From Minisyncoccota bacterium (GTDB taxonomy: Bacteria; Patescibacteriota; Minisyncoccia; Phycocordibacterales; SBAW01): a DNA stretch of 64,000 bases. A program made the translations under genes and the position numbers. Location: the NCBI GenBank assembly GCA_035546615.1, contig DASZWM010000005.1, forward strand, positions 32,001-96,000, read 5' to 3'. Positions within the stretch are counted from its first letter, which is position 1. Each line of letters opens with the position of its first letter. Below, one piece after another: positions 13,716 to 26,464 of the stretch. The notes under the pieces are model-generated. The model saw only the letters and a program-made list of their open reading frames with translations. It did no database searches and was not told the DNA's origin.

Positions 13716-16700
13716 GTGAGCTTCAAGTGCTTGAAGAAATATTTTTTTCTCCTTCCGCTGCTTGTTTTTATAGGTCCTGCGCCCTTTGTCATGGCCGCCC
13801 CCACGTTTCAAGTGGGGCCGATTTACCTCACTACGACAAGCGCGTCAAACCAAACCTGGCCCGTGCCTTCTGACTGGAACAATGCGAGCAACATCGTGCA
13901 GGTTATTGCGGCTGGAGGAGGCGGGGGCGGAGTCGCCAGCAACACGACGGGGAGCGGCGGGGGCGGCGGGGGCGGCGGATATTCAAAATCGACAAATATT
14001 ACCCTTTCCGGTTCATCGGTAACGTATCGTCTTGCGCCCGGCGGCGCCGGCGGAGGATCGTCGGCTGCGGTTGCCGGAGGCGATGCATGGTTTAACGGCA
14101 CCACATGCGCGGCTGCCTCCGTCTGCGCGAAAGGCGGAGGGGCAGGGGGCGCAGGCACAGGCGGAGGGGGAGGCGCCGCGGGCGCAGGCGGGCCGGCTAC
14201 AGGAGGAGTCGCGTCAGGCACCGGCTCAATAAAAAATAACGGCGGCGCAGGCGGGGCAGGCACAGGTGTTTCCGCCGGCGGCGGAGGGGGCGGCGCGGGC
14301 GGCCCAAACGCCGCCGGCGGGACTGGCAATCGCACCAATGGCGGGCAAGGGGACGGCACTGCAGGCGGCGCCGGCGGGATGACAAGCCTCATCAGGGCCG
14401 CGTCTGCTGGAAGCCCAGGAACTGAATTTTCATCCTCGCCCGCGTACGGGTCCGGCGGCGGCGGCGGAGGTTCTAGATACGCAGCGGACGCGGCAGCGGG
14501 AGGCACGTACGGCGCGGGCGGCGGCGGAGCTTTTGCTGCCTCCTCCGGTACCCTCCGCCGCGGAGGAGCCGGCGCTCCCGGGCTTATTGTGATTAATTAC
14601 AGCGCACCTCTTACCGTTTCCATTACCGCGCCGACCAACAGCGGCAACGCATGTATTGGCACGCCCGGTGCATTTACCATCAGCCGCAACGGGCCGGCAA
14701 CTTGGCCTGCAGTGCCGGTTGATCTTATATACGGCGGAAGCGGGAGCACCGCGGCTGCGGGGATAGACTACTCCGCTGCTGCGACAACGGTCACCATACC
14801 GGCAAATACCATGTCTATAACGCTTCCCATTACCGCGCTTCAAAAAACATCGGGCGGCAGCACTACGCTCAAGGCGACCATAGCCGCATCCTCGGCCTAT
14901 TCCGTCGGTACGCCAGCGAGCGCCACAATAGTTATTAACAATGGGACTCCGGCGATTGAGACAGTCGCCCCCTACACGATCGCTCCTTTTGCTGCTTACC
15001 CATTGCCCTACAATGGCTACATTTATCACCAAAATGGCGGTTCCGGCTACACTAATCCATTTGCCACTCCCGCAAGCATTCTTAATACATGGATCAGCAA
15101 TAGCCCTTCGCCCCAACTATGCGGCGCCAACGGCGGTACGGCCGGTATATCGCTTCCTAGTGACACGGCACAGGGCGTATGCATGGGTCCTAATTTCTCC
15201 GGCACTGTAGCAGGCACCCGGGTTGCGGTCCTGCAGGCGGTAGCGCAGACTGCAGGCATTCCTCCGGTTAATGTCGGCCTCGATCTCACGAATGTCAAAA
15301 AAACAAATCCTTGCAACACTTCAACAACGCACTGGGCGTACGCTACTGCGCCGACACAAAATACGCCCGCCGCGACGCTTAAGGTCCCTAAATACACACC
15401 GGTCCAGTTCTCTTATCAATGTTTGCCGAACCAGAATTATGTTTGGTTTAACGCCGCATGCCAAGGCGCTTACATTATTAGCTGCCTTAGCTGGACGCTT
15501 GTTACCGATGGCGACCTCAATGTCCAGACAGCGGATCGAGCGTGGTACAAGGGCACTGAAACGGCGAACCTTATCGACAGTTCTACGCAGACATTCAGCA
15601 ATTCGCAGAGCGTTACGCTCCAATGCGGCGGCTATCAGCCTCAAGAAGGGATTCCCGCAAACGGCGGTTCTCCGCCAGCTGCATCCTCCGGCACTGCTCC
15701 TACTGGAGGCAGCTACACGGTATACGGTATGCAGAATCCTTCCTATCGGCAGCCGCAAATACAAGTTGACGTACAGACATGCTCGGATCCTACCGCTATC
15801 GTACAGGGCGGTGCGTGCGTTCCGTGCAATACGGTAACTTCGGGCAGTTATCGTTCGGGTAATACCTGCGTCTTGTATCCGCCCCCGACGGCGACTATCC
15901 AAGCCAATAACGCCGGTTTTCAAGCGGCAGACAGCAGCGGCAACAAGAACGGAAAATTAGTTTCAGTTGGGGCGGGACAGCAAGTAACTGTAGCCGCCAC
16001 GTATGCTGGCAGTACCAATCAAACTCAAAAAACCGTCTTTATTACTGCCGCAGGTTCTGGCGTATGGACCGTGCCAAGCGATTGGAACAGCGCCAATAAC
16101 AGCATCGAGGTTATAGGCGGCGGCGGCACGGCGGCTTTTACGGGAGGCCGAGGCGGCGGGGGCGGCGGCGGCGCGTATTCAAAAAAGACTAATATTTCCC
16201 TCACGCCTGGCGCGCCTGTGACATATAGGGTGGGTCAAGGTGCGGCCCAAGGGAGTCCGGCCGCTCCGGGTGACGATACTTTTTTTAACCGGACCGCCGG
16301 TTCCTCAAATACCTGCGCCGATACGGTTTCGGTATGTGCCAAGGGCGGAAACAGCGGCAATGGCAACAATGGTGGAGCTGGAGGCGCTGCGAGTGGCGGC
16401 GTCGGCACTGTTAAATATTCGGGGGGCGCCGGCGCTTACGGCGATAATAACAATTCCGGCAACGGCGGCGGCGCAGGAGGTCCCAACGGGAATGGTCAAG
16501 CGGGAGACAGTGGCGGCGCAGGGGATGCGGGGCTTGGCGGCGCGGGCAGCGGTTGTGGCAACCCACCTGCGGCTGGGGGGAATGGTGCCGAGTGGATTGC
16601 TACCAATGTGTGGAGTGGCACTGCATACACGGGCGCAACGCCGACGGGCGGCTCCGGCGGGGGCGGCGGGTGCCGCTCATCCATTGCCGCTCCGGGCGGT

Positions 16701-17552
16701 AACGGCGGTTTGTATGGCGGCGGAGGCGGCTCCGGCGGAGGCAGCCAGAGCAATGAAGGAGTCGGGGCTCAGGGCATTATCGTAATCAAATATACCTCAA
16801 CCGGCGACCCTCTTGAGGCTACCGCTATCAATTGCGACTCGGGATGCGATTCACAGGACGGTGATACTGTTAACTGTAACCTTGTTGCTCCTCCCAATCC
16901 GCCGGCGGCTCCTGATCCAAACTGTTGGCGGAAACCCGATGCGACAAAGACGTATACCTTTACGCCGGCATCAGCAGACGCGGGAAAGACGTTTGTATTT
17001 TCCGCACAGGCAAAAACTTTTAACTACATCAACTATAACGGCTACGCTACCGTGCAGGTGCGGGTATGCCCGATCGGTCAGGGAACGGACGGCAACGGCG
17101 GATGTATTGCGGACGCATGCACCAACAATATCGTATTCCCAGGCAGCCAGACGACAGTACCCGCAGGATGTACGGGTAATCCGGACAATACGTGCAGCGT
17201 GCCCACCGGCTATGCGTTCAACGGCGCGGCCTGCGTCCCTTCAGCTCCGTCGGTTCCGACCCTTAGCCAAAACTCATTTACCGCCACCCGCGTACGTATG
17301 GGGGCGGCATCGACGCTTTCATGGAACATACCGGGTATGGCGAGCGGCATTACATGCGATATCAGTCCTGCGGATAAATTGCAGAGCCCGATGCCTGCCT
17401 GGACAAGCGGCTCTACTTGGATCGGCTCGGTACAGACGACCAGCATATACGGGCCCACCAAATATACGCTCACGTGCACTAACAGCACGACCGACCCGCC
17501 GGCCACCCGCAGCGTCATCGTCAACATCATCCCTGCGTATCAGGAGATATAG
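13716..17552 (+). CDS. Giant secreted Gly-rich surface protein, 1278 aa, with two internal repeat modules.
   Basis: GTG start; signal peptide MSFKCLKKYFFLLPLLVFIGPAPFVMA. Two about 300 aa modules, each with SDWN..N..V.VI.GGGG ... YSK.TNI.L ... VTYR ... VCAKGG ... G.I.VI.YS and many GGN-encoded Gly runs. The C-terminal domain of about 75 aa is shared with ORF 10132 and ends IPAYQEI. Confidence 0.75.
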   Translation: MSFKCLKKYFFLLPLLVFIGPAPFVMAAPTFQVGPIYLTTTSASNQTWPVPSDWNNASNIVQVIAAGGGGGGVASNTTGSGGGGGGGGYSKSTNITLSGSSVTYRLAPGGAGGGSSAAVAGGDAWFNGTTCAAASVCAKGGGAGGAGTGGGGGAAGAGGPATGGVASGTGSIKNNGGAGGAGTGVSAGGGGGGAGGPNAAGGTGNRTNGGQGDGTAGGAGGMTSLIRAASAGSPGTEFSSSPAYGSGGGGGGSRYAADAAAGGTYGAGGGGAFAASSGTLRRGGAGAPGLIVINYSAPLTVSITAPTNSGNACIGTPGAFTISRNGPATWPAVPVDLIYGGSGSTAAAGIDYSAAATTVTIPANTMSITLPITALQKTSGGSTTLKATIAASSAYSVGTPASATIVINNGTPAIETVAPYTIAPFAAYPLPYNGYIYHQNGGSGYTNPFATPASILNTWISNSPSPQLCGANGGTAGISLPSDTAQGVCMGPNFSGTVAGTRVAVLQAVAQTAGIPPVNVGLDLTNVKKTNPCNTSTTHWAYATAPTQNTPAATLKVPKYTPVQFSYQCLPNQNYVWFNAACQGAYIISCLSWTLVTDGDLNVQTADRAWYKGTETANLIDSSTQTFSNSQSVTLQCGGYQPQEGIPANGGSPPAASSGTAPTGGSYTVYGMQNPSYRQPQIQVDVQTCSDPTAIVQGGACVPCNTVTSGSYRSGNTCVLYPPPTATIQANNAGFQAADSSGNKNGKLVSVGAGQQVTVAATYAGSTNQTQKTVFITAAGSGVWTVPSDWNSANNSIEVIGGGGTAAFTGGRGGGGGGGAYSKKTNISLTPGAPVTYRVGQGAAQGSPAAPGDDTFFNRTAGSSNTCADTVSVCAKGGNSGNGNNGGAGGAASGGVGTVKYSGGAGAYGDNNNSGNGGGAGGPNGNGQAGDSGGAGDAGLGGAGSGCGNPPAAGGNGAEWIATNVWSGTAYTGATPTGGSGGGGGCRSSIAAPGGNGGLYGGGGGSGGGSQSNEGVGAQGIIVIKYTSTGDPLEATAINCDSGCDSQDGDTVNCNLVAPPNPPAAPDPNCWRKPDATKTYTFTPASADAGKTFVFSAQAKTFNYINYNGYATVQVRVCPIGQGTDGNGGCIADACTNNIVFPGSQTTVPAGCTGNPDNTCSVPTGYAFNGAACVPSAPSVPTLSQNSFTATRVRMGAASTLSWNIPGMASGITCDISPADKLQSPMPAWTSGSTWIGSVQTTSIYGPTKYTLTCTNSTTDPPATRSVIVNIIPAYQEI

Positions 17553-17739: not shown

Positions 17740-18210
17740 CTAGAGGCCGAAGATCTCGGCTACGTGCTCGCCCACGTGCGGGCCCTGCTCCTCTTCCTGC
17801 ACCCGGGTTTTGAGATGCTCGCGCACGTCGGCGCCCTGCTGGGCGCTGTCGAGTATCAAAGAGAAGTGGGGAGCAAGAACTCCGCGCATTGTCATGAAAA
17901 GCCGGGGATTTTCCTGGTCATGCTCGACCCAGAACGTGTGTATGGCTGAATAGGGGTAGCGCGTGCCGTCTACCGACAGGCCGCGGTCGTCCATATGGAC
18001 CGAGTGCTCGCGGGGGCCGCGCGCGGCGAGAAAGCCTATCGACAGCGCGCCTATTGCGATAATAACGGCGAAAAGAAAGTTGCCGAAGAATACCGCAGCT
18101 ACTCCGCCCGCGAGCGCGATAACGCCCAAGCCCCAGTACCAGTCGGTGCTGCGCTCGCGGTGCTCGTGCGTCGTAACGCTCCATTCCATGCGCTCCGTAG
18201 TGCCTGGCAT
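17740..18210 (-). CDS. Hypothetical membrane protein.
   Basis: 156 aa with two adjacent TM helices (WYWGLGVIALAGGVAAVFFGNFLFAVIIAIGALSIGFLAA). No motif recognised. Confidence 0.4.
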   Translation of the reverse strand: MPGTTERMEWSVTTHEHRERSTDWYWGLGVIALAGGVAAVFFGNFLFAVIIAIGALSIGFLAARGPREHSVHMDDRGLSVDGTRYPYSAIHTFWVEHDQENPRLFMTMRGVLAPHFSLILDSAQQGADVREHLKTRVQEEEQGPHVGEHVAEIFGL

Positions 18211-18254
18211 ATCGTCTTCAGTATACCATCACGCAACTGGTATACTTTTAAGAT

Positions 18255-19067
18255 ATGAAGACAATCAAACTAAACGAGGATGCGAATATCCCCGTGCTCG
18301 GCCTGGGCACGTGGCAGCTGACGGGGGATGCGTGCACGGAAGCCGTCCGCTACGCGCTTGAGCTCGGCTACACGCATATCGATACCGCCGATGTGTATGG
18401 TAATCATGCGGAAGTGGCGAGCGGCGCTAAAGCCTCCGGCGTCGCACGGGAGAAGTTCTTCCTTACCACCAAGGTGTGGCGCACCGACTTGGCGCACGAC
18501 CCGCTTGTGGAGAGCGCGGACCGCTTTCTTGAAGAGCTCGCTACCGACTATATCGACCTCCTCCTTATTCACTGGCCTAACAGCGAGATTCCTGTCGAGG
18601 CCAGTCTTAGGGCGATGGAGGAGCTTAAGCGCGCCGGAAAGGTGCGCGCGATAGGCGTTTCTAACTTTACTGTTCATCACCTTAAGGACGCACTTGAAGC
18701 CGGGGTTGAAATAACCAACAACCAAGTAGAGATACGTCCCGCCTTCGCGCAAAAAGAACTGCGTGATTTCTGTGCTTCCAAGGATATTTCCGTAACCGCG
18801 TACTCGAGCCTGCGCGGCGGTGCTAATGAATTGCCGCTTATCGTGGAATTGGCAGGGAAGTACGGCAAGACTGCTTCGCAGATAATCCTCAACTGGGTTG
18901 TGGCTCGCGGCATGATAGCGATACCTAAGAGCTCGCACCCGGAGCGCATTAAAGAGAATTTCGAGTCAGTAGATTTCGAAATGGAAGAAGCGGACCTCGC
19001 GCGCATAGATGCGCTGCCGGAAGGGAAGCGGGTTAATACGCCGGCCTTCGGGGAATTCGATTATTGA
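18255..19067 (+). CDS. Aldo/keto reductase (2,5-diketo-D-gluconate reductase-like).
   Basis: GLGTWQ ... HIDTADVYGNH ... LLLIHWP ... AIGVSNF ... IPKSSHPERIKENF are AKR superfamily signatures. Confidence 0.85.
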   Translation: MKTIKLNEDANIPVLGLGTWQLTGDACTEAVRYALELGYTHIDTADVYGNHAEVASGAKASGVAREKFFLTTKVWRTDLAHDPLVESADRFLEELATDYIDLLLIHWPNSEIPVEASLRAMEELKRAGKVRAIGVSNFTVHHLKDALEAGVEITNNQVEIRPAFAQKELRDFCASKDISVTAYSSLRGGANELPLIVELAGKYGKTASQIILNWVVARGMIAIPKSSHPERIKENFESVDFEMEEADLARIDALPEGKRVNTPAFGEFDY

Positions 19068-19533
19068 GAAAAGTTTTTGCCGATGGCATTCCACGGCAGT
19101 TTCATGCCTGATTCCGGAAACTTGTCGAGAATCCATTGTACGTAAGTATTACTGTTGGGACCACGCAAGCCGTATTTCTCTTTAAAAGGATATTGATCTA
19201 CAGAAGAAGTAATACAGTCAGCCATTCGCTCCGCAGTGGAACCATCTGCACCTTCGACAGTATCTACTATTGCAGAATTCCAGTGGAAGTAATGAACAAA
19301 AGCGAATGTCTGTATCCCGTCGGTAGGGGAAAGTAAGTCTGCGTCGAGATGGCCCCAGCTTTTGTCGCGAATCTGTCGTCCGAATCCTATTTCCCAGCGT
19401 GATATAGCGCCTTTTTATTCACGACGAACCAAGGATGGATAGCAAAGTTAAAAGGGATACAGGCAGGACATGCAAAAAGAAATACCTGATATAAGTCTTT
19501 CTTTAAGAGTTTCTGGAACTCGGCTTCGGTCAT
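19061..19533 (-). pseudogene. Frameshifted ORF in the AT-rich islet.
   Basis: On the reverse strand, ATG at 19533 gives MTEAEFQKLLKKDLYQVFLFACPACIPFNFAIHPWFVVNKKALYHAGK then a stop. A neighbouring frame continues RWEIGFGRQIRDKSWGHLDADLLSPTDGIQTFAFVHYFHWNS...YGLRGPNSNTYVQWILDKF...SQ to 19061 with no start codon. This implies a frameshift near 19385. Confidence 0.35.
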
Positions 19534-19545
19534 ATTTCCAAACTT

Positions 19546-19633
19546 TGGCGGAGGGGGTGAGATTCGAACTCACGGTACCTTGCGGTACTCTTGTTTTCAA
19601 GACAAGTGCACTCGGCCTCTATGCGACCCCTCC
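19546..19633 (-). tRNA. tRNA-Ser (anticodon TGA), type II with long variable arm; CCA encoded.
   Basis: Reverse complement: acceptor GGAGGGG/CCCCTCC, anticodon stem CTTGT/ACAAG with loop CTTGAAA, long variable arm AGTACCGCAAGGTAC, T-arm GTGAG-TTCGAAT-CTCAC, then GCCA. Confidence 0.8.
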
Positions 19634-20113
19634 CTGGCGATTTTGTATCTTACCACTGTACCAGTTATTTTCTAGGTAATGTTCCTCTGAGTGACAATTT
19701 GGACAAAGTAGTTCCAGGTTATCCAGCGTATTGTGTTGCCGGTTTCTGTCTTTGTGATGTACGTTTAATATCTCATACCTTGCATATCCGCATCGTTCGC
19801 AAATGGGGCCTCGCAGTTTCAACAGACGAAGTTTCAAGCCTCGCTGGTATACAACTTTGTCCTTAGGCGCTCGACCTTTGTATTTTATTCCTGCACGGTT
19901 GGTATTGGCGCAGCCTCTGCTACATGTATTTTTGTTTGCACTAGAGAGAATAGGTTTACCGCAGACAACACAAGGGTGTTCTTTTCGAGTAGCTAGTCCA
20001 TAACAGGTTTGACTGCAAAATACTCGACCTTGTTTAATTTGACCCGGTCGTCTATAGATTGGTTTGCCACAAACTGTGCATGCAGTATTGGGATTTCTTT
20101 TATACTCATCCAC
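19619..20113 (-). CDS. HNH endonuclease with N-terminal Cys-pair zinc-finger-like repeats.
   Basis: C-terminal HNH motif NVHHKDRNRQHNTLDNLELLCPNCH. Four CxxC pairs occur upstream (CTVCG, CSQTC, CVVCG, CERCG). The region 19070..20160 is clearly more AT-rich than the flanks. The 3' end overlaps the 5' end of tRNA-Ser by about 15 nt. Confidence 0.7.
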   Translation of the reverse strand: MDEYKRNPNTACTVCGKPIYRRPGQIKQGRVFCSQTCYGLATRKEHPCVVCGKPILSSANKNTCSRGCANTNRAGIKYKGRAPKDKVVYQRGLKLRLLKLRGPICERCGYARYEILNVHHKDRNRQHNTLDNLELLCPNCHSEEHYLENNWYSGKIQNRQGGVA

Positions 20114-20172
20114 TAATCCAGTATACCAATTCTTAGTATGGCAGGCAATACACTTTTTCCTGTCCGTAGGCT

Positions 20173-20847
20173 ATGCTCGAAGGGAACATGGATATCCAGA
20201 TTGAGCGGCTGAAGAAAAATATAGACAAATTACAGAAGACGCATGGCCACCCGGACTATACAGCCTTGTACGGGACTGGCTGTATCGATCATCCGGACCT
20301 TTTTCTTATTCTTATGAATCCGACCGCACGCAATATATCCGTGCACAAGGATTGGAAGGGTCTTAAGGCTTCCTGGCTCGGGACAAAGAACTTTTGGAAG
20401 ATACTCTATAAACTCGAACTGATCTCGGCCAAAACTTTTGCAGCTACCCAGGAACGCGCCCCGGCCGAATGGGACAATGATTTCTGCGTCGCGGTGTATA
20501 CGGAGCTGGCGCGCAACAAGGTTTTTATCACCAACTTAGGCCGTTCAACCCAGCCTGACGCTCGACCACTCCCTGACGCGGTATATAAAGCGTGCGTTGC
20601 GCTCACCCAGGAAGAGATAAACGCAGTGAAGCCTAAAGTGGTCGTTCTCTTCGGGAATCAAGTAAGCTCAGCTTTGCTTGAAACACCGATCAAGGTTTCT
20701 GAAACCCGCAAGAAACGTTTTGATCTTGAGATAGGCGGTACGGTGTATCCCGTATATGCCACCTATTACCCGGTCGGCATGGGATTTATGAATGCCGATA
20801 AGACGATCGAAGATGTTCGCTGGATTCGCAAGGCGCATTCACGATAG
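20173..20847 (+). CDS. Uracil-DNA glycosylase superfamily protein; family uncertain.
   Basis: LFLILMNPTARN resembles the UDG/MUG motif-A region (GxNPG-like). A Tyr/Pro-rich motif-B-like stretch (TYYPVGMGF) lies near the C-terminus. 224 aa. Confidence 0.4.
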   Translation: MLEGNMDIQIERLKKNIDKLQKTHGHPDYTALYGTGCIDHPDLFLILMNPTARNISVHKDWKGLKASWLGTKNFWKILYKLELISAKTFAATQERAPAEWDNDFCVAVYTELARNKVFITNLGRSTQPDARPLPDAVYKACVALTQEEINAVKPKVVVLFGNQVSSALLETPIKVSETRKKRFDLEIGGTVYPVYATYYPVGMGFMNADKTIEDVRWIRKAHSR

Positions 20848-20858
20848 ACTTACTTAGC

Positions 20859-21281
20859 ATGAAATATCTCGGCATAGATTACGGGACCAAGCGCATCGGC
20901 GTAGCTGTCTCTGATGATGGGGGCGTGGTAGCATTTCCCCTCACGACCCTGAAGAGCGATAGGGACGCGGCAGGGGAGGTTGCCGCGCTTGCCAAGAGCC
21001 GCGAGGTCGGAACAATCGTCATCGGCGAGTCTCGCAATTTTCAGAACGAGCCCAACCCTGTGATGGAGGATATTGAGCAGTTCAAAAAAGACATTGCCAA
21101 CCTGACAGGTCTGCCTGTGGAATACGAACGGGAGTTTTTTACCAGCACGCAGGCGGCGCGGCAGTTTGCGCCCGACGGCTCGCGCAAAGACAATCCTTCG
21201 CAGGAAAAGCTGGATGCATCGGCTGCAGCCTTGATTTTACAGGGGTATTTAGACAGAATAGGTGCTAAGAAGCCCATATAG
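20859..21281 (+). CDS. ruvX: Holliday junction resolvase-like / pre-16S rRNA nuclease RuvX (YqgF).
   Basis: MKYLGIDYGTKRIGVAVSDDGGVVAFPLTTL is the canonical YqgF N-terminus with catalytic Asp. 140 aa. Confidence 0.85.
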   Translation: MKYLGIDYGTKRIGVAVSDDGGVVAFPLTTLKSDRDAAGEVAALAKSREVGTIVIGESRNFQNEPNPVMEDIEQFKKDIANLTGLPVEYEREFFTSTQAARQFAPDGSRKDNPSQEKLDASAAALILQGYLDRIGAKKPI

Positions 21282-21345
21282 TCGTCGCTCGCTCGGAAAT
21301 TAAAGTAAAACTTTATTTCTCTCACTCGCTAGACTATTAAAAACA

Positions 21346-21675
21346 ATGGAACCAATTAGCATAGACGATTTCAAAAAGATAGAGATCCGCATCGGAGAGA
21401 TAAAGAGCGCGGAGAAGATAGAAGGGAGCGACAAGCTCCTGAAGCTTAAGGTTATGTTCGGCGAAGAAGAGCGTCAGGTGCTTTCCGGCATCTCGGCGTA
21501 TTTTCCCAACCCGGAGGACTTGGTGGGGAAGAAGTGCCCGTTCGTTACCAACCTGGCGCCGCGCACCATGATGGGGCTTGAGAGCCAGGCGATGATATTG
21601 GCAACCGGCGGCGACGGCGAAACGCCGTTCGCTCTGTTCGAAACCTCGGGCGCTTCCGGCGCGCGCGTCCGCTAA
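21346..21675 (+). CDS. Standalone tRNA-binding domain protein (CsaA/Trbp111/EMAP-like OB fold).
   Basis: FKKIEIRIGEIKSAEKIEGSDKLLKLKVMFGEEERQVLSGISAYF matches the tRNA-binding domain found at the C-termini of MetRS and PheT. Confidence 0.7.
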   Translation: MEPISIDDFKKIEIRIGEIKSAEKIEGSDKLLKLKVMFGEEERQVLSGISAYFPNPEDLVGKKCPFVTNLAPRTMMGLESQAMILATGGDGETPFALFETSGASGARVR

Positions 21676-22640: not shown

Positions 22641-23312
22641 ATGGAAGGTCCTGCCAAACCCAGTAACAACACTAAGGAAAGCTCTCCTAAGCCTTCTGTT
22701 GAAGTTGAATCAGAGTTTGCCGAATTCGTGCCACAGGACTTCCTTAATGACCCTGTAGGATATTTTGAACGTGGAGGAAAGAATATAAAAACAGGAGAAG
22801 TTAAATATGATGAGGCTGGTGCGCTTCGTGAGGATCCAACTGCTGTAAAAGATTTACCAGTCTGGACGAATAGCAATGGAATAGAAATTCTTACGGTAGG
22901 AAGAAGGGTAAATACGATTAAGGGCGCTGTAGGAGAATCAGGAGATCCTTTCTACGAGTACAAAATCCTTGAGAAGCTTATGGAAATCGGGTTACCCGCT
23001 GCGAGGCCTATTGCGAAAGCAGAACAGGGCGGTACTCATATCATTGTCATGGAGCGTATTCCGGGGGTTAGGTGGTCTGAAAGAGAAAGTCTGAATCTCA
23101 AAGAAAAAGGATACTCTGACGAAGACATTGCAACTCTAATAAGTGAAGCAGAACAGAAAATGGATGGCCTGAAAACTCGCTTTGACGAAGCGGGAGTTAT
23201 TCGCAGTTGGAAACTGAAGGATATGGTATTTGAGATAGACATTGAGAATAAGAAAGTTATTTCTATAGTCCCCACAGATTGGGAAAGGACGAAGATTATT
23301 GAAAAGCAATAG
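22641..23312 (+). CDS. Small atypical kinase-like protein (RIO/Kdo-kinase-like fold; tentative), lower-GC gene.
   Basis: THIIVMERIPGVRW resembles the IVMEYIxG hinge motif of RIO/Kdo kinases. The downstream GVIRSWKLKDMVFEIDIENKKVISIVPTDWER resembles the catalytic-loop/DFG region. The gene starts 5 nt after tRNA-Val and its GC content is clearly below neighbouring genes. Confidence 0.4.
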   Translation: MEGPAKPSNNTKESSPKPSVEVESEFAEFVPQDFLNDPVGYFERGGKNIKTGEVKYDEAGALREDPTAVKDLPVWTNSNGIEILTVGRRVNTIKGAVGESGDPFYEYKILEKLMEIGLPAARPIAKAEQGGTHIIVMERIPGVRWSERESLNLKEKGYSDEDIATLISEAEQKMDGLKTRFDEAGVIRSWKLKDMVFEIDIENKKVISIVPTDWERTKIIEKQ

Positions 23313-26386: not shown

Positions 26387-26460
26387 GGTGGTCGTAGCTC
26401 AATCGGTAGAGCCCTGGTTTGTGGTACCAGTTGTTGTGGGTTCGAGTCCCATCGACCACC
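26387..26460 (+). tRNA. tRNA-His (anticodon GTG) with encoded G-1.
   Basis: G-1 followed by acceptor GTGGTCG/CGACCAC, discriminator C, D-arm GCTC-AATCGGTA-GAGC, anticodon loop TTGTGGT, T-arm GTGGG-TTCGAGT-CCCAT. Confidence 0.8.
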
Positions 26461-26464
26461 CAAG

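Follow-up and report, generated by a model that had tools for sequence, protein, structure and literature searches.

Analysis of a 64,000-nt stretch of the genome of a Minisyncoccota bacterium (contig DASZWM010000005.1, positions 32,001 to 96,000, assembly GCA_035546615.1; hereafter the window) identified an HNH endonuclease gene that runs into the 5' end of a tRNA-Ser(UGA) gene. Judging by sequence and position, we lean towards reading this gene as a homing-type HNH cassette that is free-standing and has specialised on tRNA-Ser genes. Homologues of the genes in the window are assigned by their sources to Patescibacteria, and the window looks like a genome of Paceibacterota type. Its phage HNH relatives, its patchy presence and its fixed insertion position are hallmarks that suggest homing. 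The cassette comprises an extended -10 promoter (TGGTATACT), a GTG start codon 6 nt further on and an open reading frame (ORF) of 164 aa continuing into the tRNA. The interest of the element rests more on a position rule found across its family than on the window locus alone. The locus was compared with that of a near-identical relative (GCA_037975565.1, designated L003), whose flanking proteins are 91-99% identical to those of the window. The features concerned are as follows:

19061..19533, minus strand: DUF3750 gene, frameshifted (PF12570 match and synteny with L003)
19412..19416, minus strand: frameshift site, an A5 run in gene sense (T5 on the plus strand), A6 in the intact orthologue
19546..19633, minus strand: tRNA-Ser(UGA), complete, CCA encoded (ARAGORN; Rfam RF00005)
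19619..20113, minus strand: HNH endonuclease gene, 164 aa, GTG start, intact (PF01844), stop codon within the tRNA
19634..20136, minus strand: HNH cassette, a 503-bp insertion relative to the empty site of L003 (junction alignment and blastn blocks)
19647..19655, minus strand: TGGTAAGAT, second extended -10-like motif in the 3' coding end of the HNH gene, 13 nt before the tRNA +1
20120..20128, minus strand: TGGTATACT, extended -10-like motif 6 nt ahead of the GTG start, marking the conserved 5' boundary of the cassette
20137..20158, minus strand: AAAAAGTGTATTGCCTGCCATA, remnant of the native upstream/promoter region of tRNA-Ser, displaced upstream of the HNH gene and homologous to AAAAAGTGTATTGTCTTCTATGA of L003
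20184..20858, plus strand: family-4-like uracil-DNA glycosylase (UDG) gene, likely start 20188, absent from L003

Insertion boundaries of the HNH cassette

The window and L003 share a common order of tRNA-Arg(gcg), a DUF6232-like gene, an aldo/keto reductase (AKR), ..., DUF3750, tRNA-Ser, ..., RuvX, a tRNA-binding protein, VTT, tRNA-Arg(tct) and tRNA-Val. DNA identity between the two was found to be 83-98% up to the AKR stop (19063) and from the start of RuvX (20860) onwards. The RuvX of L003 is 96% identical to that of the window, and the HNH gene is absent from this relative, so that the locus is polymorphic for presence and absence, being filled in the window and empty in L003.

In L003 only 42 bp separate tRNA-Ser and RuvX, and the sequence CCTTTGAGCATAACGGATAAAAAGTGTATTGTCTTCTATGA spans from the RuvX start to the tRNA +1 without interruption, with AAAAAGTGTATTGTCTTCTATGA directly preceding the +1 position. 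The homologue in the window reads CCTTCGAGCATAGCC...AAAAAGTGTATTGCCTGCCATA (20137-20178) and is followed by CTAAGAATTGGTATACTGGATTA-GTG, which opens the HNH gene. The alignment thus places the cassette exactly between the native tRNA promoter region and the tRNA +1, with insertion bounds of 19634-20136. The HNH gene is thus free-standing, lying outside any intron or intein.

The sequence downstream of this junction has also diverged. The block of DUF3750 and tRNA-Ser shows 69% nucleotide identity between the window and L003, and tRNA-Ser itself is only 79.5% identical, while tRNA-Arg(gcg), tRNA-Val, tRNA-Leu(gag) and tRNA-Arg(tct) are 97-100% identical. A divergent tRNA-Ser and DUF3750 set against flanks of 83-98% identity right up to the junctions would be consistent with co-conversion.

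A second insertion relative to L003 was identified on the other side of the native promoter, namely the UDG gene. Its product matches P0241 (219 aa) at 100%, with the next homologue at 73% and in an unrelated neighbourhood, and no UDG gene was found at the 80 other HNH loci. Given its absence from these loci and the unrelated context of its nearest homologue, UDG was rejected as a part of the cassette and is a separate single-gene insertion or deletion (indel). Over its first 11 nt (ATGCTCGAAGG; window 20173-20187), the longest UDG ORF is homologous to ATGCTCAAAGG of L003 (L003 4857-4897), which forms a mini-ORF of 4 codons overlapping the RuvX start. Translation of UDG probably begins at the second ATG (20188), in agreement with P0241, an NCBI protein of 219 aa.

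A third difference is a 1.9-kb block found only in L003, between AKR and DUF3750 (L003 5534-7303), that contains a 115-aa ORF, an HhH-GPD glycosylase, a 66-aa ORF and endonuclease V; this block of repair genes is absent from the whole 64-kb window. The variable genes around tRNA-Ser are mostly related to DNA repair (UDG, endonuclease V and HhH-GPD).

The HNH gene and its product

The HNH ORF and the 5' end of the tRNA share 15 nt, so that the tRNA supplies the final four codons and the stop. The product was matched to PF01844 (29.8 bits against a cut-off of 21.4, E 6.6e-7). Four CxxC pairs (C12/15, C48/51, C105/108 and C137/140) were found to be invariant in 26 homologues, as were the residues H119/H120, N132, H141 and H145 of the HNH core. 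The protein also has two CxxxC pairs. The pairs C105xxC108 and C137xxC140, which flank the HNH motif, form the structural zinc site. The protein is laid out as two N-terminal zinc ribbons resembling YacG and treble-clef folds, identified by weak DUF2116 and YacG matches, followed by the zinc-bound HNH core. A gene with four CxxC pairs overlapping the 5' end of a minus-strand tRNA-Ser(TGA) had been proposed in an original prediction made from the sequence alone, and this arrangement was borne out.

Searches of the protein against nuclease families showed that phrog_1271 ('HNH endonuclease') was the best curated family match (E 4.2e-20, residues 9-145). An AlphaFold2 model (pLDDT, the predicted local distance difference test, 78) contained strands at 117-120 and 133-136 and a helix at 138-149. 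With this fold, phage homing and HNH endonucleases were matched over the full length of the model in BFVD (E 1e-8 to 1e-6), among them proteins of tRNA-rich jumbo phages. Matches in the PDB were to generic HNH cores only (McrA, Cap5, EndoVII), and those in defence-system libraries were likewise limited to the HNH core.

The original prediction had viewed the gene as part of a decayed cassette. This does not hold: since the catalytic and zinc-binding residues are intact and the ratio of nonsynonymous to synonymous substitution rates (dN/dS) for the family is 0.04-0.06, the gene is predicted to be functional and not decayed.

Position of the HNH family relative to tRNA genes

More than 500 homologues of the HNH protein were found at 60-80% identity. 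The position of family members relative to tRNA genes was examined in several sets of loci, with the distant representatives being taken from clusters obtained at two thresholds (54 clusters at E <= 1e-30, 902 at E <= 1e-10):

80 species-representative genome loci: tRNA-Ser(tga) at 78 of 80, on the same strand and -64 to +100 nt from the HNH stop; the contigs of the remaining two end at the gene
HNH-blind sample of 80 metagenome loci anchored on RuvX: tRNA-Ser(tga) in 47; HNH in 7 of these 47, all directly 5' of the tRNA
Distant cluster representatives, four picked arbitrarily: all four abut or overlap tRNA-Ser (tga, gct, gct, tga)
Relatives on IMG/VR viral contigs, 30-53% identity: 13 of 13 in or next to tRNA arrays, with tRNA-Ser as the neighbour in six
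Annotated phage, Streptomyces phage Jada gp14: downstream of a tRNA-Thr array
Annotated phage, Vibrio phage nt-1 HNH (ORF189): 3' end overlaps tRNA-Ala in an array of 19 tRNAs

Family members are thus located in the 5' leader of a tRNA gene encoded on the same strand, and this gene is nearly always tRNA-Ser. In the RuvX-anchored sample this position holds whichever orientation the tRNA has to RuvX. The stop codon of the HNH gene lies inside the tRNA in about a quarter of loci, the window included.

Truncated 5' fragments resembling tRNA-Ser (e.g. GGAAGGGTGGCAGAGCGGACTGG) were observed some 20-130 nt upstream of the HNH start at L038, L052, L061 and L067, and these may be scars of cassette insertion into or beside tRNA-Ser genes. 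At L071 and L073 a complete second tRNA-Ser isoacceptor gene lies upstream of the HNH gene.

A difference in the D-arm of the tRNA was also noted. The canonical tRNA-Ser G9G10C11 was present in 1 of 7 loci with the HNH gene and in 28 of 40 without it (HNH-blind sample, p = 0.009, with kinship ignored), and over 127 loci in 21 of 86 HNH-linked genes versus 29 of 41 others (kinship likewise ignored). The non-GGC D-arm of the HNH-linked tRNA-Ser may reflect either an allele that confers immunity or the lineage of the genomes.

Promoter elements and transcription

A promoter scan upstream of the HNH start identified TTGCCT-17-TATACT, preceded by TG. Across 82 loci the 16 nt before the start (-16 to -1; consensus TGTGGTATACTGGatgaGTG) carry 1.1-2.0 bits per position, compared with approximately 0 further upstream, and the start codon is GTG in 67 of the 82. 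The geometry from TGGTATACT to the start codon equals the spacing from -10 to +1 upstream of tRNA-Ser genes that lack an HNH gene. These features suggest that the HNH gene is leaderless and that its transcript forms the 5' leader of the pre-tRNA-Ser. The native promoter motif was also found upstream of the cassette at L079, and native and cassette promoters are therefore in tandem in both the window and L079.

The second motif, TGGTAAGAT, may be an independent promoter of the tRNA. Of the loci with the HNH gene, 26% have the pattern TGnTAnnnT at a distance of 9-15 nt upstream of the tRNA, compared with about 2% at control positions. An internal tRNA promoter was rejected as a general feature, and co-transcription of HNH and tRNA appears the likelier general rule, because this pattern precedes the tRNA in only 26% of these loci.

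An Rfam scan of 18900-20400 (E <= 1) found a single complete tRNA (RF00005, full model, 19549-19633, 56.8 bits) and no intron or other structured RNA. As the tRNA is uninterrupted and is the only element detected by Rfam, the possibilities of a cassette intron or of an endonuclease encoded by a group I intron were rejected.

Homing versus vertical inheritance

Under the homing interpretation, the HNH enzyme would cut tRNA-Ser loci that lack the gene, and repair off the HNH-bearing copy would install the cassette, sometimes together with neighbouring DNA. Transcription would include the cassette, as a leaderless ORF, in the pre-tRNA and so keep the tRNA expressed, and where the stop codon lies inside the tRNA, processing by RNase P may limit the output of the nuclease.

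Homing was weighed against the alternative of a domesticated host nuclease, which is the main rival and the less probable account. On this account the gene was in the pre-tRNA-Ser leader of an ancestor of Patescibacteria and has since been inherited vertically under strong selection and lost repeatedly, with its position being kept by co-transcription with the tRNA. The distribution of the gene bears on both interpretations. Approximately 15% of tRNA-Ser(UGA) loci are occupied (7 of 47 in the HNH-blind sample), which speaks against domestication, as does the clean native promoter-tRNA junction in L003, a relative whose RuvX is nearly identical and which lacks the gene. In a clade of 15 host genomes, each of the four with the HNH gene has a nearest neighbour without it. 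The HNH proteins of these four scattered genomes are 60-79% identical, being as divergent as members of the family are across the phylum. Pairs demonstrably related by vertical descent keep an HNH identity at or above that of their hosts. The tandem of native promoter remnant and cassette promoter in the window and at L079, and the presence of distant relatives in phage tRNA arrays, are further points that vertical descent does not readily accommodate.

A number of results fit domestication better and weigh against homing. The dN/dS of 0.04-0.06 indicates purifying selection as for housekeeping genes, and the catalytic residues are all invariant. The GC content of the HNH gene tracks that of the host across 82 genomes (rho 0.85). 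Close hosts carry close HNH proteins, RuvX identity of at least 0.8 going with HNH identity of at least 0.88, and the mean pairwise identity of HNH proteins is 64%, compared with 44% for RuvX. No remnants of the gene were found at empty tRNA-Ser sites (0 of 39; hmmsearch of six-frame translations, best E 0.44), and no decayed or pseudogenised copies were seen. The identity of the HNH protein does not co-vary with that of the adjacent tRNA (rho -0.02). Comparison with the outgroup L101 (tRNA identities 0.89 and 0.86) does not polarise the difference between the window and L003 as a gain or a loss, and homing would leave the self-immunity of the retained tRNA gene unexplained.

Domestication is further favoured by a congruence between HNH and host (rho 0.22) that is approximately the host-host congruence (rho 0.28). 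It would also fit a weak hit, under the cut-off, to YajD, a chromosomal HNH family (E 1.5e-7). RuvX identity is likewise uncorrelated with tRNA identity (rho 0.01), and near-identical tRNA types recur in distant hosts whose HNH proteins are only 55-67% identical. Joint transfer of HNH and tRNA-Ser as a general rule was not supported, given the rho of -0.02.

A broader form of the homing interpretation may be put forward tentatively, and we regard it as possible rather than probable. This would be a phylum-wide cellular homing system for tRNA-Ser genes, in which a leaderless HNH in the pre-tRNA-Ser leader recognises tRNA-Ser DNA and selection keeps its function. Dosage would be gated by tRNA processing, with the RNase P cut yielding a non-stop message, and the non-canonical D-arm could serve as the immunity allele.

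The DUF3750 gene

Downstream of tRNA-Ser, two open frames of one split ORF were identified on the minus strand, running from 19533 to 19387 and from approximately 19410 to 19061. Joined, they amount to 157 codons, and PF12570 (DUF3750) was matched across the junction (E 5.5e-21). The coding parts proper are 19533 to 19417 for the N-terminal segment and from about 19411 to 19061 for the C-terminal segment. The frameshifted ORF of the original prediction is therefore real, with its lesion lying at 19412-19416 and not near 19385, which is merely where the upstream frame reaches a stop.

The repaired protein scores 76.1 bits against a cut-off of 25 (residues 29-155), aligns with its homologues over the full length and keeps 23 of 23 invariant residues. 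More than 250 homologues were found in Patescibacteria, all intact and of 150-170 aa. The shift lies inside the most conserved motif of the family, and the repaired VVNKKGAISRWE fits the consensus FVVNKKGxISRWE. In the syntenic L003 orthologue, which is also downstream of tRNA-Ser and shares 61% amino acid and 69% nucleotide identity with that of the window, the sequence reads AAT AAA AAA GG where the window has AAT AAA AAG G, so that one A of an A6 run is missing. No second defect was found in the ORF, and the inactivation would consequently be recent. By its sequence, DUF3750 is best annotated as a resident gene, now a pseudogene through the change from A6 to A5, and should be flagged as frameshifted pending a check of the reads.

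An error in a homopolymer of the reads or consensus, with the gene intact in the organism, is an unlikely source of the missing base. It would account for a lone base lacking from such a run in an ORF that otherwise remains intact with all conserved residues kept and whose orthologue has A6. Runs of A5 or A6 are nevertheless short for a systematic error of short reads, and a Logan contig from run SRR12170516 has 0 mismatches to window positions 18134-19574, the A5 included, this being an independent assembly possibly made from the same reads. Since this separate assembly has the same A5, an artefact of the assembler is unlikely. Both Logan contigs of this run (L085 and L001) end inside tRNA-Ser (window 19561-19574), which suggests branching of the assembly graph through shared tRNA k-mers or strain variation.

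Continued expression of DUF3750 by a -1 ribosomal slip is scarcely credible. A slip on AAT-AAA-AAG (A-site AAG to AAA) would give exactly the consensus VVNKKGAISRWE, the shift site resembles A_AAA_AAG, and tRNA-Lys(UUU) is the sole tRNA-Lys in the window. The heptamer is imperfect (T AAA AAG), however; none of 253 homologues needs a shift, the orthologue simply having A6, and no stimulatory structure was seen, although none was looked for.

Composition of the AT-rich patch

The patch at 19061-20160 has a GC content of 0.440, compared with 0.574 for the window as a whole. No other 1.1-kb stretch of the window is lower in GC content, a value as low being reached by only 0.05% of sliding windows, and this agrees with the low-GC stretch that was initially described. 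Its edge at the convergent stop of the AKR was likewise confirmed, the stop of DUF3750 being at 19061-19063 and that of AKR at 19065-19067. The neighbouring genes, identified by Pfam search, are AKR, DUF3750, HNH, UDG and RuvX.

The same low GC content was found in L003, whose DUF3750 has a GC content of 0.44-0.48 in a genome of about 0.57 and is thus as AT-rich as the copy of the window. Furthermore, in 79 of 82 genomes the GC content of the HNH gene is below that of its flanks, the average deficit being 6.6 percentage points. As a result, the AT-richness of the patch is largely intrinsic to the DUF3750 and HNH gene families. Low GC content was rejected as a sign of recent acquisition, given that the GC content of the HNH gene follows that of the host and that the DUF3750 of L003 is equally AT-rich. 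The GC content at third codon positions of the window HNH gene lies 2.3 standard deviations below the family trend (z = -2.3), which hints at a later arrival of this gene.

The original prediction had treated the HNH gene and the frameshifted ORF as one decayed mobile cassette integrated at the tRNA. The low GC content covering both genes, the frameshift in one of them and the absence of the HNH gene from the closest relative agree with such a unit. It is nonetheless very improbable: DUF3750 occupies the same place, with the same low GC content, in the HNH-less L003 and was found at none of the 80 other HNH loci, purifying selection acts on the HNH gene, which is intact, and the insertion is on the 5' side of the tRNA. 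What remains of this proposal is an insertion beside a tRNA, probably of homing type and limited to the HNH gene. Relatives with the same genes and the same composition, named at the outset as counting against a mobile cassette, were found in the case of DUF3750 and in part for HNH. Relative to L003, three separate indels (HNH, UDG and the 1.9-kb repair block) and a divergent allele of DUF3750 and tRNA-Ser were found in place of a single islet. The patch is no recently acquired island and is a composite of a resident DUF3750 pseudogene, tRNA-Ser(UGA) and the 503-bp HNH cassette.

No recombinase or integrase gene was found among AKR, DUF3750, HNH, UDG and RuvX. Att-like repeats or a duplicated 3' segment of the tRNA were also not found, the only repeats being of 14 nt and at chance level. 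An integrase-type island at the tRNA was rejected on these grounds.

Comparison to known tRNA-associated endonucleases

In phage T4, the tRNA gene cluster harbours SegB, a homing endonuclease that is also free-standing. Its recognition site lies in tRNA-gene sequence and includes a tRNA motif, and its homing co-converts the flanking tRNA genes (PMC2330249). By analogy, SegB would be the closest functional counterpart of the HNH cassette. SegB differs in being phage-borne and of the GIY-YIG family rather than HNH, and in recognising the T-psi-C motif, which many tRNAs share. SegB also lacks both a fixed geometry between ORF and tRNA +1 and a specificity for tRNA-Ser. The activity of SegB is also known from experiment, while that of the window HNH protein is predicted.

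HNH genes have been noted in the tRNA clusters of mycobacteriophages and proposed to spread tRNA genes (PMC6409571). The HNH proteins of phage tRNA arrays (phrog_1271, Jada gp14, nt-1 ORF189) share the homologous architecture of zinc ribbons and HNH with that of the window, at 29-33% identity and with BFVD fold matches, and they also adjoin or overlap the 5' end of a tRNA on the same strand. Members of the window clade, in contrast, are chromosomal in Patescibacteria, 58-80% identical to each other, found at tRNA-Ser(UGA) only and preceded by the TGGTATACT-N6-GTG start, whereas those of phages lie beside various tRNAs with looser spacing.

In Patescibacteria, HNH homing endonucleases have been described in group I introns of tRNA-Asn(GUU) (PMC13011429). 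These have the phylum, the PF01844 superfamily and the tRNA gene as habitat in common with the window gene. They interrupt the anticodon loop, whereas the ORF of the window is free-standing in the 5' leader of an uninterrupted tRNA.

The zinc-bound HNH core resembles that of McrA (PDB 6ghc, E 0.008-0.03) and YajD (NF008448). Both matches are below family cut-offs and limited to the HNH core, and neither protein is linked to tRNA genes; McrA also has a reader domain for modified DNA that is absent from the window HNH. Integrative islands that target tRNA genes are similar as AT-rich insertions beside a tRNA gene. The insertion of the window is only 0.5 kb and lies at the 5' end of the tRNA, between promoter and +1. 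In the library searched, no literature was found on chromosomal HNH genes that as a family keep to the 5' leader of tRNA-Ser, or on a link between HNH and tRNA-Ser in bacteria of the candidate phyla radiation.

If homing is correct, Patescibacteria would host a long-lived selfish nuclease for which a tRNA gene is the landing site and at the same time the means of expression. In cells it would be the equivalent of the endonucleases by which the tRNA clusters of phages are shuffled. It would also explain why allele replacements and small indels concentrate around tRNA-Ser(UGA) in genomes that are syntenic elsewhere, and would provide a compact nuclease of about 160 aa, with a possibly long target specific to tRNA genes, as a possible tool.

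Other features of the window

Other differences from L003 were observed in the window. The intergenic region between RuvX and the tRNA-binding protein (21260-21359) is alignable to L003 over only about 22%, with flanking genes of 83-89% identity, and represents a small replaced segment. Directly after tRNA-Val, an ORF of 223 aa (22641-23312, plus strand; GC content 0.41-0.44) with no Pfam match was identified where L003 has only about 126 bp, this being another small insertion beside a tRNA gene. The tRNA-His(gtg) of the window (26388-26461) is 63% identical to that of L003, the other shared tRNAs being 97-100% identical, and a block of homology to L003 ends exactly at this gene, which looks like a second tRNA-associated replacement breakpoint. 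Finally, an ORF of 1278 aa (13716-17552, plus strand) was found to encode an extremely Gly/Ala/Ser-rich product with repeated GGxGG tracts, its GC content reaching 0.72, far above the mean.

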